DNA from: Parcubacteria group bacterium
Lineage (GTDB): Bacteria; Patescibacteriota; Minisyncoccia; Phycocordibacterales; GCA-002724975
Length of the DNA stretch: 64,000 nt
Assembly: GCA_002724975.1 (NCBI GenBank)
Contig: PBQF01000039.1
Coordinates: 1,152-65,151 of the forward strand
Direction of reading: 5' to 3'
Below are positions 7,484 to 34,723 of the stretch, piece after piece; position 1 is the stretch's first letter; the number at the start of each line of letters is the position of its first letter. The notes beneath the pieces are model-generated. The model was not told where the DNA came from. It worked only from the letters and a program-made list of their open reading frames with translations, and did no database searches. The translations under genes were made by a program, and so were the position numbers.

Positions 7484-8419
7484 CTAGATTTTCAAGTACC
7501 TTCTAACAGCTAGATAACTTGAACCGCCCCCGAGAACAATCCCAGCAACAAGCATTATTAGAAAAATATGACCAAAGTTGTTTAGATAGTAGTCAAAAAT
7601 ACTAATTCCCCCAAAAAAGGTTTCGGTTGAAGGACCGAGCCAAAGAGTTAATGGGTAAAAGAGAATAAGAGCAATGAAGGCAGAAATAACCCCAGATAGG
7701 GCGCCCTCTACCACAAACGGCCCTCTGACATATTTGTTTTCTGCCCCCACTAGTTTCATTACGGAAATCTCGTCCCTTGCTGTAAAAACCGTCAAGCGAA
7801 CCGTGTTAAACGTCATAGCTATGGAAATAAATATAAATAGGAATACTAGGGCTAAAGAGAGTGTTTCAATTGAATCTATAATACTATTAAGGTGGTCAAT
7901 TGCTACTTTGTTTTGGTAATAGTTAACCCTATCGATAATTGCATTCCCGTCTCCGGAAGCTAAAGCATTCTGTGAATCCAAAAATTTGGCAATGCCTTCA
8001 TATTGAGAAGTCTCTTTGGCTTTAATATTTAAATTCGCGCCCAGCGGATTTTCATTAAGTTCATCAAGAGCCTGTAAAATAAGCTGGTCATCCTCGTGCC
8101 TTTCCCTAAAAACTGCAAGTGCTTTCTCACGGTTTACATATTCAACAAGGCCAACCTCCGGTAAAGCTTCAACTTGAGTTTTCAAGTCCAAGATTTCTGA
8201 TTCAGGAGCAGTAGTTAAAAAATAGACATTGATATCAACTTTATCCTTTAATTGAGTTAATGAAGTATCAAACATTGCCCCCAGAAAAATCAGGGCACCA
8301 ATGATAAAAAGGGAGAGAGCCATAACCAAAGTTGAAGCCAGCGAAACAAAAGCATTTCGCCAAAAGCCAACAAAACCTGAACGAAGTATTCTCTTTAAGT
8401 CAGTCCACATCATAAACAT
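7484..8419 (-). CDS. ftsX: cell division ABC transporter permease FtsX
   Basis: 311 aa with the FtsX topology (N-terminal TM, large extracytoplasmic loop, 3 C-terminal TMs), immediately downstream of ftsE. Confidence 0.8.
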   Translation of the reverse strand: MFMMWTDLKRILRSGFVGFWRNAFVSLASTLVMALSLFIIGALIFLGAMFDTSLTQLKDKVDINVYFLTTAPESEILDLKTQVEALPEVGLVEYVNREKALAVFRERHEDDQLILQALDELNENPLGANLNIKAKETSQYEGIAKFLDSQNALASGDGNAIIDRVNYYQNKVAIDHLNSIIDSIETLSLALVFLFIFISIAMTFNTVRLTVFTARDEISVMKLVGAENKYVRGPFVVEGALSGVISAFIALILFYPLTLWLGPSTETFFGGISIFDYYLNNFGHIFLIMLVAGIVLGGGSSYLAVRRYLKI

Positions 8420-9108: not shown

Positions 9109-9978
9109 TTAGAGATTTTTTTCTGCTTTAATAAATTCTTCCAACCCACCATCTAAAACACCCTCAACGTCCCTGACTTCCACTTCTGTTCTGTGGTCCT
9201 TAATCATTTTATATGGATGAAGAACATAGGAGCGAATCTGGTTTCCCCATTCAACCTCGGTAGTTTTTGAAACATAAAGTCCATGCTCTTTCTTCTTCTT
9301 ACGCTCTTCCTCAATATGATATATCTTCCCTTCAAGAATTTCCAGCGCTTTTTCCTTATTTTGCTCTTGACTTCTTTCACTTTCTACATGTACAGAAAGC
9401 TTAGTTGGTTTGTGCACAATTCTGACAGCCGTTTCTCTCTTATTTACATTTTGTCCCCCCGGCCCTGATGATCGGGCAAAAGAAATATCTAAATCATCCT
9501 CTGAAATGTCCATCTCCTTTACACTTTCGAATTTGGGAATCACTTCAACCATTGAAAATGAAGTGTGCCTCTGACTCTTGGCGTTAAACGGGGAAATTCT
9601 GACAAGCCGATGAACTCCTGATTCATTTTTTAGGGTTCCGTAGACATTCTTCCCTTGAATTTCAAATGTAAGATTCCTGTATCCTCCATGATTATTTTCG
9701 TTCCGGTGAAGAATATTAATAATCCAACCCTTGTCTTCTATATATTTCTGATACATTTTGAAAAGCATTGCCGAAAAATCTTCGGCATCGTCGCCGCCCG
9801 CTCCGGAGAAAATTGTCATGACTGCTCCCCCTTTGTCATATTTCCCAATACCTTCAAGCTGGTCCTTTAATTCCTGAAGTTCTTTTATTTTTGCCTGCGC
9901 CACATTTTTATCATTCCAGAAATCAGAAGATTGTATCTCTTTTTCCAGACTTTCAATTTTTGATTTTATATCATCCAT
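9109..9978 (-). CDS. prfB: peptide chain release factor 2 (N-terminally short form)
   Basis: SGPGGQNVNK GGQ motif and an RF2-type core. The ORF-track N-terminal extension (to 10113) runs through a tRNA gene, so the start is assigned to ATG at 9976-9978 (MDDIKSK...). Confidence 0.8.
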   Translation of the reverse strand: MDDIKSKIESLEKEIQSSDFWNDKNVAQAKIKELQELKDQLEGIGKYDKGGAVMTIFSGAGGDDAEDFSAMLFKMYQKYIEDKGWIINILHRNENNHGGYRNLTFEIQGKNVYGTLKNESGVHRLVRISPFNAKSQRHTSFSMVEVIPKFESVKEMDISEDDLDISFARSSGPGGQNVNKRETAVRIVHKPTKLSVHVESERSQEQNKEKALEILEGKIYHIEEERKKKKEHGLYVSKTTEVEWGNQIRSYVLHPYKMIKDHRTEVEVRDVEGVLDGGLEEFIKAEKNL

Positions 9979-9989
9979 AATGCTTGATG

Positions 9990-10062
9990 AGCCGAAGGCG
10001 AGGATTGAACTCGCGACCTCACCATTACGAGTGGTGCGCTCTACCAACTGAGCTACTTCGGC
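9990..10062 (-). tRNA. tRNA-Thr (anticodon CGT)
   Basis: GCCGAAGTAGCTCAGTTGGTAGAGCGCACCACTCGTAATGGTGAGGTCGCGAGTTCAATCCTCGCCTTCGGCT read on the minus strand; anticodon loop CTCGTAA. Confidence 0.85.
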
Positions 10063-10071
10063 TTTCAAGGG

Positions 10072-18539: not shown

Positions 18540-20507
18540 TTAAGGTGCCACTCCATATTTCCACTCTAGGATTTCGTAATCAAAGGTAGGCGGCGCAGAA
18601 GAACCGTCTTTGAAAAAGTTTGTGAAAAGAGTGTAATCATCAAAAGCAGGACCAATCCGAATTTTGAAAATAGCAACAAAGAAATCACTTCCCTGCACCG
18701 CTCCATTACCAGTATAGTTATCGCCCTGTTCCGTTTTTTCAACATCAATATGATTCGTAAAATGTGAAGCTAATTCAGTGGAACTAGCAATAATTCCTTT
18801 GAAAACTACCCGATGTCCTTTTCCTGACATTGAAGCAGTAGCAAGATAGGTACAATAGCCATCATTTTCTGGAGTCCCGTCTGTTGGAGAATAATAACCG
18901 CCGGAAAGATAGGTTGAGGTTTCGGGCATACAATAGTATCCGGCTACTTTTACAGCATTTGAATTCGCTGCTTTTGGCGTTCCATTTATGTCATTCCCAC
19001 CAGAATCTGTGCCATTTCGATTAAAGCCATTATTTGACCTCCAATTTGTTGAGATACTTCCTAAAGTACCAGTATCAATCCTCTCCATTGAAAACGGATT
19101 TGCTACATTAGAACCAGCACACCATGAGCCCGAACAGCTTGATGTAGTTGGCGTTGAATCAAGAGTGGTGCTGGCTTGTCCGCCAAGAGCATGAATCAAA
19201 CTTAGAGTTTCTTGTGTGTTCGACAGTTCGGAACCTGCTCCATCTCCGCTAAACGCAGCAGTTAAATCTGCGGTAACACTTGTTGCATCGTCGTCGGTCC
19301 TTTCAATCAAATAGTAACTTGATGCGGCGATGGTGCCCGTCAAATTAATTAAAGGCACTCCGTCTGAAGCGACAATTTTCACACTTGATAAATCAATAGT
19401 GCCTGAACTCCTGTTGTATAGCTCAATCCATTCATCAGCAGTGGAAGATTGTGTCCCCGCCCAAGCAATTTCATTAATTACAACTGGCATTGTCGAAACG
19501 TCTACGCTTTGAGCGGTTGATGTTGAAGTATTGTTTGAAGTATCTGCTACACTCACTTCAACTGACACACTTGCGCCATTTGAAACTGAAAGTGTGGTTG
19601 AAGTTCCTGTTAAAGTTTCTTGAAGCACTCCGTCTTTCCAAACTTTATAGGAAGCAATGCCTGTTGATGATGAAGTCCAAGAGATATCTATAGTTTCGCT
19701 TCCTGAAAGACAAGTTGTGGTGCTTAAAGAATTATCACACTGAAGAATTGAGAAGGTGTCAAAGGTCGGCGCAGTTGTATCAATTTCAAGCTCTATAATC
19801 GTGCCATTAATAGCGACATTCCCTGCTTCATCAGTTGCATAAAAAATAATTGTGTTAGAACCTTCCGAAATACCAGAAAGAGTTAAAGACCAAGTTCCGT
19901 TTGTTGCAACCGCAGTGTCAGAAGAAAAATCAGTACTAACAGTACTATCTGCTTCTGCAGTCCCTTCAAAAGTAATTGTTGAAGTTGCAAAAGGAGAACT
20001 AAAATCATCAGGTGAAATAACAACCGGTTTGTCGGGAGCAGTTGCATCTACAACCGCAGCACCACCACCACCGCCACCGCCGGAAATTATTTCTCCACTA
20101 CCACTCCCTCCACCCAATGATGATTCAGGGGGTGAAAAATCTGGCTCAACAAAAGGCTCAATTACAGTTTCTAAAACTGGTTCTGGTGTCGATTCCGGTG
20201 CAGAGATAAAAACAGGATTTGGTTCAGGTGTCGGCTCAGGTACAGGAACTGGATCAGGGACTGGCGTTGGTTCTGGAACAACTTCAACAACAGGTTCCGG
20301 AGCCGATTCTGGCTCAGAGTTTTCTTGAACAACTCTGACTGCAGATGCTATACTATTATTTCTGTAATTGATGCCACCTAATTTATCTAATCCTTTTAAG
20401 ACTTCTGGCCAAAAAAATAATAAGAGAAAAGCAAGAATAAAAAGAACAACACTCAAAAAAGCAAAAAAGCCAAGGTTAGAATGTTTCTTTTCAAAATTAT
20501 CCTCCAT
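18540..20507 (-). CDS. secreted/surface protein with Pro-rich linker, Gly-rich segment, Ig-like repeats and a lamin tail domain (LTD)
   Basis: N-terminal TM, a PEPTPVPDPVPVPEPTPEP linker, and VVINEIAWAGTQSSTADEWIELYNRSSGTIDLSSVKI which matches LTD. Confidence 0.65.
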   Translation of the reverse strand: MEDNFEKKHSNLGFFAFLSVVLFILAFLLLFFWPEVLKGLDKLGGINYRNNSIASAVRVVQENSEPESAPEPVVEVVPEPTPVPDPVPVPEPTPEPNPVFISAPESTPEPVLETVIEPFVEPDFSPPESSLGGGSGSGEIISGGGGGGGAAVVDATAPDKPVVISPDDFSSPFATSTITFEGTAEADSTVSTDFSSDTAVATNGTWSLTLSGISEGSNTIIFYATDEAGNVAINGTIIELEIDTTAPTFDTFSILQCDNSLSTTTCLSGSETIDISWTSSSTGIASYKVWKDGVLQETLTGTSTTLSVSNGASVSVEVSVADTSNNTSTSTAQSVDVSTMPVVINEIAWAGTQSSTADEWIELYNRSSGTIDLSSVKIVASDGVPLINLTGTIAASSYYLIERTDDDATSVTADLTAAFSGDGAGSELSNTQETLSLIHALGGQASTTLDSTPTTSSCSGSWCAGSNVANPFSMERIDTGTLGSISTNWRSNNGFNRNGTDSGGNDINGTPKAANSNAVKVAGYYCMPETSTYLSGGYYSPTDGTPENDGYCTYLATASMSGKGHRVVFKGIIASSTELASHFTNHIDVEKTEQGDNYTGNGAVQGSDFFVAIFKIRIGPAFDDYTLFTNFFKDGSSAPPTFDYEILEWKYGVAP

Positions 20508-20572
20508 AAAAAAATTATACCCTTAATCTAATATAGATATTCATTGAAAAGTTGAAAAGCTGTGGAAATACT

Positions 20573-20755
20573 TTATTTCCAGTCTTTAATAACAATCATA
20601 CTCCCTTTTCTTTTTAAAACCACTTTTTGTTTGCCTCTCCATTTAAGTTTTCGAACAAATTCCACAGGAATATTGACAGATACACTCCTACCGCCACCAG
20701 AACGAACAAGTTTCCGTATATTTCTTTCTTCTACTTTTTTTCTTGACATATTCCT
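20573..20755 (-). CDS. SpoVT/AbrB (MazE-like swapped-hairpin) small DNA-binding protein
   Basis: 60-aa MSRKKVEERNIRKLVRSGGGRSVSVNIPVEFVRKLKWRGKQKVVLKRKGSMIVIKDWK. Absent from the ORF track (borderline length) and antisense to the spurious + ORF at 20562-20795. Confidence 0.5.
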   Translation of the reverse strand, partial: RNMSRKKVEERNIRKLVRSGGGRSVSVNIPVEFVRKLKWRGKQKVVLKRKGSMIVIKDWK

Positions 20756-20828
20756 ATTATATCACTCTGCTCTGTGCTTGCACGGTGCACTATAGCCACC
20801 CCAAGCTTGGGGTAATGGGTGTGTATGT

Positions 20829-20860
20829 ATGAAAAGGGAACCTTTCTTCGGAAAGGTCCC
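20829..20860 (-). terminator. intrinsic terminator of cassette 4 (GGGACCTTTC-cgaa-GAAAGGTTCCC + TTTTC)
   Basis: Near-perfect 10-11-bp stem at 20836-20860 with a T-tract on the minus strand. Confidence 0.7.
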
Positions 20861-20889
20861 TGTTTAGTTTGCGCCGTAAGACGCCTCTT

Positions 20890-21153
20890 CTAGGCAGAGC
20901 CACATAAAATCGTAGCCTCGCCATCCTCATAAATCAGCTTCCTCCTTCTCTGTGAACACTCACTAAGGAAGCCTGGCGTCTCGGTGAAAATGTCAGCTGG
21001 AGCCATATACCAAGTCAGTAGACCGACAAGACGACCTTCGCTGTCGAGCCTGTGAGCTGCTAGCAACAATTTCTTTTTGTCACGAGCAACACTGATGAAT
21101 GGTCCCTCAATCATCCAGAACTCACCAGATGAAAGCGGTGTCGGCACCACCAT
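20890..21153 (-). CDS. hypothetical small protein (74-87 aa; alternative ATG at 21114), GC-rich cassette 4 gene 2
   Basis: GC3-rich ORF. The ATG at 21112-21114 lies 10 nt after the upstream gene's stop, behind a GGTGAG SD-like element. Confidence 0.45.
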   Translation of the reverse strand: MVVPTPLSSGEFWMIEGPFISVARDKKKLLLAAHRLDSEGRLVGLLTWYMAPADIFTETPGFLSECSQRRRKLIYEDGEATILCGSA

Positions 21154-21328
21154 TTCGCATGACCCAAAGTGATTGGGTAATCTGCGAAGTCAGTTCCGAT
21201 CCCTCCGCTCGCGTCTCTAAGAAGTACGCGAGAAGCACCGCCAACAAAACTCCTACCCCAATAGTGCCCAAGACCAGCTTGAGTACAGTTGAGAAACTCG
21301 GCGCCTTGTCCATCTCTTCTACCTGCAT
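21122..21328 (-). CDS. hypothetical single-TM small membrane protein (about 68 aa), GC-rich cassette 4 gene 1
   Basis: MQVEEMDKAPSFSTVLKLVLGTIGVGVLLAVLLAYFLE... with a GGGGGT SD 5 nt upstream. Confidence 0.45.
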   Translation of the reverse strand: MQVEEMDKAPSFSTVLKLVLGTIGVGVLLAVLLAYFLETRAEGSELTSQITQSLWVMRNGGADTAFIW

Positions 21329-21370
21329 TAATACCCCCATTAAAAGGATGGGCCTAGTTATCCCCCACTG

Positions 21371-21399
21371 ATTAGACCAAAAAGGAAGATTAAAATCAA
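21371..21399 (-). promoter_or_regulatory. sigma70-like promoter of cassette 4 (TTGATT-17-TCTAAT)
   Basis: -35 at 21394-21399 and -10 at 21371-21376 on the minus strand. Confidence 0.45.
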
Positions 21400-21400
21400 G

Positions 21401-21568
21401 CTAGCAATCAGTCGAGTCTTCAGGACACTCTCGCACAATACTTTCGGACGAAATTTCACCGGAATTATTCTCTGCAACTCCAGCAAGATAAATCAAAACA
21501 AGACTAACAAAAATTACACCAATGAAACCAAACAGAAACCTGTAAAAGTTTTTTGTCAGAATTTCCAT
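21401..21568 (-). CDS. hypothetical small membrane protein (55 aa)
   Basis: MEILTKNFYRFLFGFIGVIFVSLVLIYLAGVAENN... Host-like AT-rich codons. Lies between the TPR gene and cassette 4. Below the ORF-track length cutoff. Confidence 0.35.
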   Translation of the reverse strand: MEILTKNFYRFLFGFIGVIFVSLVLIYLAGVAENNSGEISSESIVRECPEDSTDC

Positions 21569-21586
21569 AATTCCAATTATACCAAA

Positions 21587-22369
21587 TTAAAGTTTTTCCA
21601 ACTCACTTTCTGCGTGATTCTGAATATCAATTAATCCAAGCGTTTCTGCTAGAGCAACTGTTTCTTTAAAGAATTTCTTAGCGTTAACAACATCTCCGGT
21701 ATCACGATAATACTCGGCTTTTTTTAAAGGGAAATATATTTCATCCATTAAAAGATTACTCCCCTGCTCTAAAAGAAGTAGAGCATTTGCTCTGTCTTCA
21801 AGCTTGAAAAAGAAAATATTATAAAGGTTGTCGTAATAATTGAGATAGGCCGGATTCTTCTCAATTGCTTGAACATAGAAGTCTTTGGACTTTTCAATAT
21901 CAAGCAAATTAGTATAGTAGAGATTTCCAAGATTTCCATATGCAACATGGTCAAATGACCAAACTTGAGTCATAAACAACCAAATTTCCTCCGCACCTTT
22001 GTAGTCTTCTATTGAGTTTCTAAAAAGAGCCAATTGAAGCCATTCACCCCGGAGAGCTGGGTCTTCTTTTAGTGCAGAAACAATTGTTTGATATTGTTCC
22101 ATTGTATTATTCTTTATTTCCTCACTATAAATTTCAGGAACGGTAAACTCTCTATCTAAGCCTGGAATTATTTCCTCTGGTATTTCCTCCCCAAAAGAAG
22201 CGTCTACTCTATTTTCTCCATCGGTAATAGTATCCGAAGTAGTTGTAGAAGTATTCTCTTCATTGTCTGGAGCTTTTCCGATATTAGTCAAATCATTATA
22301 GATAAAATACCCAAGGGCACCCAGTAAGATTATAAGCAATAATATAGGCAGGATTGTTTGTTTATTCAT
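21587..22369 (-). CDS. TPR-repeat protein with N-terminal membrane anchor
   Basis: Start at MNKQTILPILLLIILLGALGYFIYN; the C-terminal half carries TPR-like repeats. Confidence 0.6.
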   Translation of the reverse strand: MNKQTILPILLLIILLGALGYFIYNDLTNIGKAPDNEENTSTTTSDTITDGENRVDASFGEEIPEEIIPGLDREFTVPEIYSEEIKNNTMEQYQTIVSALKEDPALRGEWLQLALFRNSIEDYKGAEEIWLFMTQVWSFDHVAYGNLGNLYYTNLLDIEKSKDFYVQAIEKNPAYLNYYDNLYNIFFFKLEDRANALLLLEQGSNLLMDEIYFPLKKAEYYRDTGDVVNAKKFFKETVALAETLGLIDIQNHAESELEKL

Positions 22370-34249: not shown

Positions 34250-34723
34250 CTAGATTCTTCTTTGCCTCTGGTAGCACATGGGACAGATGGACTTGCCATC
34301 TTTTGTGCGCGTGGCCACAGACTTGTCCCTCCTGCACAAAGAGCAAGGCTCGTGTGTAGATTTGTCATGGTAGCGGGCTCTCTGGTAGCACATGGGACAG
34401 ATGGACTTGCCATCTTTTGTGCGCGCGGCCACAGACTTGTCCCTCCTGCACAAAGAGCAAGGCTCGTGTGTAGATTTGTCATGGTAGCGGGCTCGCTTAT
34501 AGCACACGGGACAGATGGACTTGCCATCTTTTGTGCGCGTGGCCACAGACTTGACCTCTTCGCACAAAGAGCAAGGCTCGTGTGTAGATTTGTCATGGTT
34601 GCGGGCTTGCATATAGCACGCACGACAAATTAGTTGACCCATCTTACGATTTTGGGCAACTCCTTTCTTTCTTCTACCACAAACACCGCAACGCTGCTGC
34701 TGCCAGTGCCAATTACGTTTCAT
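34250..34723 (-). CDS. tandem zinc-ribbon repeat protein (157 aa; 4 x about 37-aa CxxC...CxxC units), GC-rich cassette 5
   Basis: ATG at 34723 is preceded by GGGAGGAAGG. Repeats of HDKSTHEPCSLCRRDKSVA.RTKDGKSICPMCYQRARY. The underlying 111-bp DNA repeats are about 97% identical. Confidence 0.6.
   Translation of the reverse strand: MKRNWHWQQQRCGVCGRRKKGVAQNRKMGQLICRACYMQARNHDKSTHEPCSLCEEVKSVATRTKDGKSICPVCYKRARYHDKSTHEPCSLCRRDKSVAARTKDGKSICPMCYQRARYHDKSTHEPCSLCRRDKSVATRTKDGKSICPMCYQRQRRI
34262..34640. repeat. 111-bp tandem DNA repeat array (about 3.5 copies) within the zinc-ribbon gene
   Basis: Units begin at 34262, 34373 and 34484 with 2-6 substitutions per copy; they generate spurious ORFs on both strands. 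Confidence 0.9.

Follow-up and report, generated by a model that had tools for sequence, protein, structure and literature searches.

Horizontally acquired regions, including genomic islands, have been documented in Patescibacteria (PMC12455944). The segment described here lies in a 64,000-nt stretch of DNA (the window) from a marine Parcubacteria group bacterium (assembly GCA_002724975.1, contig PBQF01000039.1), where a G+C-rich islet at about 20800-21400 contains two small open reading frames (ORFs) on the minus strand, named ORF1 and ORF2. The source organism is a member of the Patescibacteria (Parcubacteria/Paceibacteria), and the P-type ATPase encoded in the window shows 61% identity to its counterpart in a metagenome-assembled genome of Candidatus Campbellbacteria. 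Small units of deviant base composition are also familiar from phages, whose ‘morons’ are independent promoter-gene-terminator units.

The explanation favoured here, to which we give about an even chance, takes the segment for an orphan accessory islet of about 0.6 kb, restricted to one species and acquired horizontally, which encodes a membrane peptide and a coupled, beta-rich protein. The islet would fill a variable slot with which a conserved cell-envelope operon ends on its 3′ side, and would be transcribed by read-through from this operon or from its own weak promoter, transcription ending at an intrinsic terminator within the islet. ORF1 would encode a 68-aa single-pass membrane peptide. 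ORF2, starting 7 nt downstream, would be translationally coupled to ORF1 and yield a 74-aa beta-rich soluble protein. Both products may be accessory envelope-associated proteins, the local counterpart of the unrelated orphan ORFs (ORFans) which relatives carry in the same slot. Foreign composition, position in a variable slot, restriction to one species, the ORF structure, the terminator and the membrane-helix signal of ORF1 are observed directly; we infer the co-transcription of the two frames, the translation of ORF2, its coupling and any role in the envelope.

Foreign composition and a variable slot

The G+C content of the islet is 0.47–0.54, compared with 0.24–0.39 in both flanks; summarised, the contrast is about 0.50 to 0.30–0.38. 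At the third codon position (GC3), the values are 0.62 for ORF1 and 0.49 for ORF2, against 0.31±0.04 (maximum 0.38) for the host reference of 33 window ORFs of at least 200 aa, an excess of 4.5–8 standard deviations. Because both measures are far above those of the flanks and the host ORFs, the 0.6-kb segment is compositionally foreign. The module directly upstream (21401-22369, minus strand), consisting of the gene for a TPR membrane protein (21587-22369) and that for a 55-aa membrane peptide (21401-21568), has host-like composition, in agreement with the preliminary description of this DNA.

A first scan of genome contigs with the TPR protein gave no match; the orthologues that were obtained share 44–61% identity. 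Related genomes keep, upstream, a giant surface protein of about 1200 aa (1224 aa in the window), the TPR protein and, on contigs that reach this far and with the exception of L017, a membrane peptide of 48–56 aa. The downstream anchor on longer contigs is yqeY on the opposite strand, with the P-type ATPase gene present as well on contigs L014 and L019. At the orthologous loci of four or five related species, the same upstream module is followed by wholly different content before yqeY/ATPase. The slot measures 0.3 kb in L013 (one membrane ORF of 71–86 aa), 0.47 kb in L019 and L057 (a basic ORF of 66 aa with its own terminator) and 1.8 kb in L014 (ORFs of 133 aa, 133 aa on the opposite strand, and 155 aa), and holds a 161-aa ORF in L016. 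In the window it spans 3.1 kb and contains ORF1, ORF2, an AbrB-like gene and the gene for an LTD surface protein of 655 aa. The slot ORFs of the different species are mutually unrelated and have a G+C content above that of their own flanks. Hydrophobic helices are present in the slot proteins of L014 (155 aa), L016 (161 aa) and L013 (71–86 aa), and in several slot ORFs the helix is N-terminal. No relatives of ORF1 or ORF2 were found at 39 metagenome and 80 GTDB-genome related loci. The segment is marked as horizontally acquired by its deviant composition, its absence from the orthologous loci of relatives and the conserved anchors on both sides. The earlier suggestion of a foreign insertion into the tail of an existing operon is supported by this composition and by the different content found at the orthologous loci.

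The islet is confined to one species. All 16 same-species loci retrieved via the islet or a neighbouring gene, originating from TARA, deep-ocean and other marine samples, were 99.8–99.9% identical over 1150 nt, with no indels. There was no presence/absence polymorphism within the species, every assembly having the islet with identical spacing, and the islet is thus fixed in a single, almost clonal population of global distribution. One single-nucleotide polymorphism, 20950 G>A (CAG to CAA), sets the window apart from every other assembly; it is synonymous in the ORF2 frame. No flanking direct or inverted repeats marking the boundary of a mobile element were found; a 10-nt inverted repeat (20813-20822 and 21333-21342) is at chance level. 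Pfam, NCBIfam, PHROGs and PADLOC contained no family matching ORF1 or ORF2, and nothing matching ORF2 or an artificial fusion of both ORFs turned up among viral contigs or in phage and plasmid records. Among PDB sequences (E≤1), ORF2 had no match and ORF1 two chance matches to transmembrane segments (E about 0.7). A degraded known gene was considered as the origin of the islet and rejected, as a six-frame Pfam search at E≤10 gave no match.

The 55-aa peptide belongs to a micropeptide family of 48–56 aa with the pattern MKILTxNFYKFLFGFIG....SL..I..AG, usually ending in ECxxGxxxC at the C-terminus, for which no Pfam or NCBIfam family was found. Its genes are located at 21401-21568 in the window, 6164-6319 in L013, 7477-7623 in L014, 1769-1939 in L016 and 5821-5988 in L019. 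The gene lies directly 3′ of the TPR gene in five of the closer relatives. It is missing from L017, the closest relative by TPR protein (61% identity), where the spacer at 1120-1310, which precedes a G+C-rich ORF, carries CCCGTTAGA / TCTAACGGG four times in inverted orientation.

The two reading frames and their control elements

On the minus strand, the gene order is the 55-aa peptide gene, ORF1, ORF2, a terminator, palindromes and an AbrB/MazE-like gene. The 55-aa peptide gene ends at 21401 and no terminator is located between it and ORF1. Both minus-strand products that had been described for the G+C-rich segment were recovered, with all features at, or a few bases from, the places originally assigned to them. 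The sole correction to the coordinates concerns the spacing between ORF1 and ORF2, previously given as 10 nt, which measures 7 nt from the ORF1 TGA (21122-21124) to the ORF2 ATG (21112-21114). Neither product is new to the databases: a cluster look-up showed that ORF1 and ORF2 had been deposited as MBO05900.1 and MBO05899.1 respectively, both as ‘hypothetical protein [Parcubacteria group bacterium]’.

ORF1 (minus strand) extends over 21122-21328 (68 aa), or over 21122-21340 (72 aa) when read from an upstream in-frame ATG. The start of the 68-aa form is preceded by a Shine-Dalgarno-like run, GGGGGT (21333-21338), 4 nt 5′ of the ATG. The acidic N-terminus (MQVEEMDKAPSFS), which has no GG motif, is followed by one transmembrane helix (VLKLVLGTIGVGVLLAVLL...) and a tail of 31 residues; AEGSELTSQITQSLWVMR would be one of its tryptic peptides. 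The maximum Kyte-Doolittle mean over 19 residues is 2.53, a value attained by only 0.08% of random open frames matched in base composition (P = 0.0008). With a GC1/2/3 of 0.56/0.41/0.62, the pattern over the codon positions is coding-like. ORF1 is probably a real gene, and it is the better supported of the two frames as coding because of this pattern, the Shine-Dalgarno-like run and the hydrophobic window. Descent of ORF1 from a duplicate of the conserved 55-aa peptide was considered and rejected: a hidden Markov model of five orthologous peptides ranked ORF1 102nd out of 1,829 sequences, the set being made up of ORF1 and shuffled copies of it.

ORF2 (minus strand), in the +1 frame relative to ORF1, covers 20890-21114 (74 aa), or 20890-21153 (87 aa) from an upstream ATG. 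Its start has a Shine-Dalgarno-like element, GGTGA (21122-21126), overlapping the stop codon of ORF1. The product has no hydrophobic segment and is predicted to be beta-rich; LDSEGR and LVGLLTWYMAPADIFTETPGFLSECSQR would be among its tryptic peptides. Single-sequence AlphaFold2 modelling gave a three-strand meander for residues 11–40 with a block-mean predicted local distance difference test (pLDDT) score of about 75 and less than 50 for the remainder. A Foldseek comparison with the PDB yielded nothing significant (best E = 0.078), the matches reflecting a generic three-strand meander. The case for ORF2 as a gene is weaker than that for ORF1. A possible resemblance between its N-terminus and the opening strands of transposases of the RNase-H-like or IS110 type was considered and dropped, since the six-frame Pfam search (E≤10) showed no such match.

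A weak promoter-like site (21371-21399, minus strand) adjoins the stop codon of the 55-aa peptide gene on its 3′ side. It consists of TTGATT (21394-21399), a 17-nt spacer and TCTAAT (21371-21376), a –10 hexamer whose lack of A at position 2 kept the site out of the consensus promoter scan. As read from the letters, this site is a candidate promoter. At the other end of the islet, 3′ of ORF2, an intrinsic terminator is located at 20827-20860 (minus strand). Its stem-loop (20837-20860) has a 10-bp stem and a 4-nt loop, GGGACCTTTC-CGAA-GAAAGGTTCC, followed by CTTTTCATAC with the run CTTTTC on the minus strand.

Beyond this terminator, palindromes are found at 20774-20812: the perfect 14-bp palindrome CCCCAAGCTTGGGG (20799-20812) and the GTGCAC/GTGCAAGCAC repeats (20774-20790). 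Terminator, palindrome and repeats were thus all present as reported before. The interpretation of the palindromes as 3′ elements of the cassette is less economical than one in which they form the control region of the next gene, given their place before the extended –10 box TGATATAAT (20756-20764, minus strand). They sit about 10–50 nt upstream of this box, with GTGCACCGTGCAAGCAC at 20774-20790 between the box and CCCCAAGCTTGGGG. The box itself lies 6 nt 5′ of the ATG (20749) of the AbrB/MazE-like gene (20573-20749, minus strand, 58 aa; Pfam MazE_antitoxin E = 0.0025, under the curated cut-off), from which it follows that its mRNA would be leaderless or near-leaderless; the box is thus assigned to this neighbouring gene and not to the cassette. 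Judged by position, the palindromes may be the 5′ control region of the AbrB-like gene, a candidate operator or spacer, and need not belong to the cassette. This gene and the LTD gene following it are absent from the orthologous slot of relatives; the composition of the AbrB-like gene is host-like.

CCCCAAGCTTGGGG was rejected as a repeated element of the repetitive extragenic palindromic (REP) or attC type, as it occurs in a single copy in the window. When up to two mismatches were allowed, the chance expectation was 0.22 and at least one match was seen in 18 of 100 shuffles. An integron cassette was rejected likewise: no GTTRRRY core is present on either strand in 20760-20830, the palindrome is single-copy, and the G+C-rich cassettes of the window are scattered over 25 kb and not arrayed. 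No integrase was found among the neighbouring genes, the whole window not having been scanned for intI.

In L014, a different palindrome, TACCAAGGTCGAACCTTGGTA, not shared with the window, is present in two copies (8266-8286 and 9175-9195), each located behind one of two slot ORFs. In the second copy the stem is lengthened to 19 bp. This suggests a REP-like or terminator repeat family of that genome.

Weighing of the alternative explanations

Several results weigh against the accessory islet with two genes. Any promoter of its own is weak, and the GC1/2/3 profile of ORF2 (0.53/0.46/0.49) is flat. Structure models had an overall mean pLDDT of 55–59, which is low confidence. Dinucleotide shuffles of the islet had a longest ATG-initiated ORF of at least 87 aa with P = 0.10, and the length of an ORF is by itself weak proof of coding here. 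Gene calls differ among assemblies, some having one ORF only or other starts, and in four assemblies (two of them from NCBI) zero genes were called within a gap of 651 nt. Searched by word index against 5.8 billion proteins, ORF2 returned its own cluster only; an exhaustive HMMER search of 1.84 billion representatives with ORF1 and ORF2 joined returned only the self-clusters of 87 aa and 72 aa. No homologue was thus found that could show conservation, purifying selection or co-occurrence. The shuffles, the flat profile, the lack of homologues and the assemblies without a gene call at the islet also fit with a mostly non-coding, decaying remnant taken up from another organism, in which ORF2, and possibly ORF1, are chance frames in stop-poor DNA of 50% G+C; the antisense strand of the islet even holds an open ORF of 90 aa. 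We consider such a remnant unlikely. A hydrophobic helix as strong as that of ORF1 is rarely met in random frames, each of the two ATGs has a Shine-Dalgarno-like run before it, and a strong terminator lies immediately 3′. In the same shuffles, a second-longest ORF of at least 68 aa had P = 0.03, and in 1.5% (P = 0.015) the longest ORF reached at least 87 aa and, at the same time, the next one at least 72 aa. The six-frame search revealed no fragment of a known family.

That the two frames are the halves of one broken gene is a second explanation, which we also hold to be rather improbable. The ancestral gene would have encoded a protein of about 145 aa, anchored in the membrane by its N-terminus and carrying a beta-rich domain outside the cytoplasm; now a pseudogene or decaying, it would have been split into ORF1 and ORF2 by an insertion of 1 nt or a deletion of 2 nt within 21122-21192. 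The +1 frame of ORF2 indeed has no stop codon over the 25 or so codons before its ATG, where it overlaps the tail of ORF1, and the slot ORFs of L014 (155 aa) and L016 (161 aa) combine an N-terminal helix with some 110–135 residues in a single ORF. In a model of the artificial fusion, the end of ORF1 forms a strand beside the sheet of ORF2, at a pLDDT below 50. Among the 1.84 billion representatives, however, there were zero intact fused versions, and the similarity of the fusion to the slot proteins of L014 and L016 was not significant (BLASTP E = 0.03–8). The layout of stop codon, GGTGA, 7 nt and ATG resembles that of a functional coupled pair. Programmed +1 frameshifting would require a slippery sequence, for which the prfB-type shift site is the reference; no slippery site is present, as UGG UGA G cannot re-pair.

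The preliminary description compared the pair with toxin/immunity, bacteriocin/immunity or small signalling pairs. Here a membrane toxin or pore former would be neutralised by the soluble partner, or the reverse. This comparison draws on the layout alone, a small membrane peptide tightly before a small soluble ORF, and an AbrB/MazE-like gene does adjoin, though behind the terminator and with its own promoter. We find such a function very unlikely. PADLOC, Pfam, NCBIfam and PHROGs offered no match, and in the searches of 5.8 billion (ORF2) and 1.84 billion proteins (both ORFs) only self-matches appeared. There are no homologues, so no conserved pairing exists, and no other genome was found with the pair, a result which the original proposal had itself named as counting against it. 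The N-terminus of ORF1 is acidic and has neither a double-glycine nor a Sec-type leader. Genes for transport or processing are missing from the vicinity, the neighbours being the genes for the TPR protein, the 55-aa peptide, the AbrB-like protein and the LTD surface protein.

On the view that G+C-rich islands in AT-rich genomes are often RNA genes, a G+C spike of about 600 nt could be read in this way. The folding z-scores, –1.9 for the minus and –3.4 for the plus strand, were obtained with only 20 shuffles and are judged unremarkable. When the whole window was scanned with Rfam 15 at the gathering score, no family matched the islet, and at E≤10 the stretch 20300-21700 had only two chance snoRNA matches (E = 7.8–9.1). 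With no homologous sequence in relatives, covariation gives no support. Considering also the coding signals of ORF1 and the comparable G+C-rich island c1 in the window, which is demonstrably protein-coding, a structured non-coding RNA is extremely improbable.

Other G+C-rich islands and known systems

Five small G+C-rich islands lie on the same strand of the window, at 10.3–10.8, 12.15–12.6, 13.6–14.0, 20.8–21.4 and 34.2–34.75 kb, the fourth being the islet discussed above. They have no DNA similarity or repeat family in common. Cassette c1 (10310-10740, minus strand) is a complete unit, with a TTGACT-17-TATAAT promoter, an AGGAGG site, a 90-aa ORF (MADHHPQ..., G+C 0.64, GC3 0.82) and a terminator formed by a hairpin and T-run. 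Homologues with 60–72% identity were found on metagenome contigs (L137 3990-4330, L140 3100-3426, L138 and L139), in neighbourhoods that differ (ruvC/obg; an aminoacyl-tRNA synthetase gene) and each as a G+C spike of 0.55–0.60 in a background of 0.41–0.46. The 3′ untranslated stretch of c1 (GGAGTAA..CGTCCCGCTT.ACTGC.GGACGGAGAACAAGAATCC) recurs in each of these homologues and is conserved above the level of the coding part.

The location of these homologues in different neighbourhoods as G+C spikes suggests that the five islands could represent a new class of self-contained mobile small-gene units in AT-rich Paceibacteria, each with promoter, gene and terminator, moving from one intergenic site to another without a recognisable recombinase. 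Such units would keep their high G+C content wherever they had landed, and would land preferentially 3′ of the TPR-micropeptide pair. We regard this idea as quite unlikely. The membership of the islet in this class is conjecture, because it has no homologue and nothing ties it to such units.

Further observations concern the remaining islands and the release factor gene. Cassette c2 has a 90-aa G+C-rich ORF (12333-12602, minus strand), followed by about 180 nt of G+C-rich non-coding DNA (12150-12330) with a terminator at its end. This stretch has the 12-mer AGAACAAGAAYC in common with the 3′ element of c1 and, as read from the letters, could be a 3′-untranslated RNA element; Rfam gave no match to it. 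A 157-aa G+C-rich ORF (34253-34723, minus strand) contains repeated Cys-pair motifs (C-x2-C), including three near-identical tandem repeats (...HDKSTHEPCSLC..KSVA.RTKDGKSICP.CY.RAR.). Its zinc-ribbon-type matches are weak: the zinc-finger region of NCBIfam Cas12f2 (E = 9e-7) lies far under the cut-off, and Pfam DUF7419 and LIM are under the cut-off as well. The mechanical reading frame of release factor 2 (334 aa, 9109-10113, minus strand) extends upstream over two tRNA-Thr genes.

By itself, the islet is of small import, being one more lineage-specific orphan islet in a genome of the candidate phyla radiation. Its value is contextual, as it marks a variable slot beside genes for large surface proteins in a marine Parcubacteria species of global distribution, and functions in host interaction or phage evasion tend to turn over in slots near such genes. 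It also serves as a caution that 50%-G+C inserts in AT-rich genomes yield plausible pairs of ORFs, which gene callers treat unevenly.

Compared with toxin-antitoxin and bacteriocin-immunity pairs, the islet has the same form, a closely spaced pair of very short genes of which one encodes a membrane peptide, but it is without family match, conserved pairing, leader peptide and export genes. With the morons of phages it has in common that it is a small unit of ORFans, deviant in composition and equipped with an intrinsic terminator, and the sister cassette c1 resembles them further in having the full set of promoter, Shine-Dalgarno site, ORF and terminator and in its varied neighbourhoods elsewhere. 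Unlike morons, the islet lies outside a prophage, matches nothing in PHROGs or in phage and viral collections, and is without a convincing promoter of its own. The replacement-type flexible islands of marine bacteria differ from it in several respects: the islet is only 0.6 kb in a slot of 3.1 kb, neither an integrase nor a tRNA target nor direct repeats at its flanks were detected, and the variation is between species, the islet being fixed within its own. It nevertheless resembles these islands in its deviant base composition, in the small envelope-associated ORFans placed beside large surface-protein genes, and in its fixed position between anchors with a different cargo in each species.

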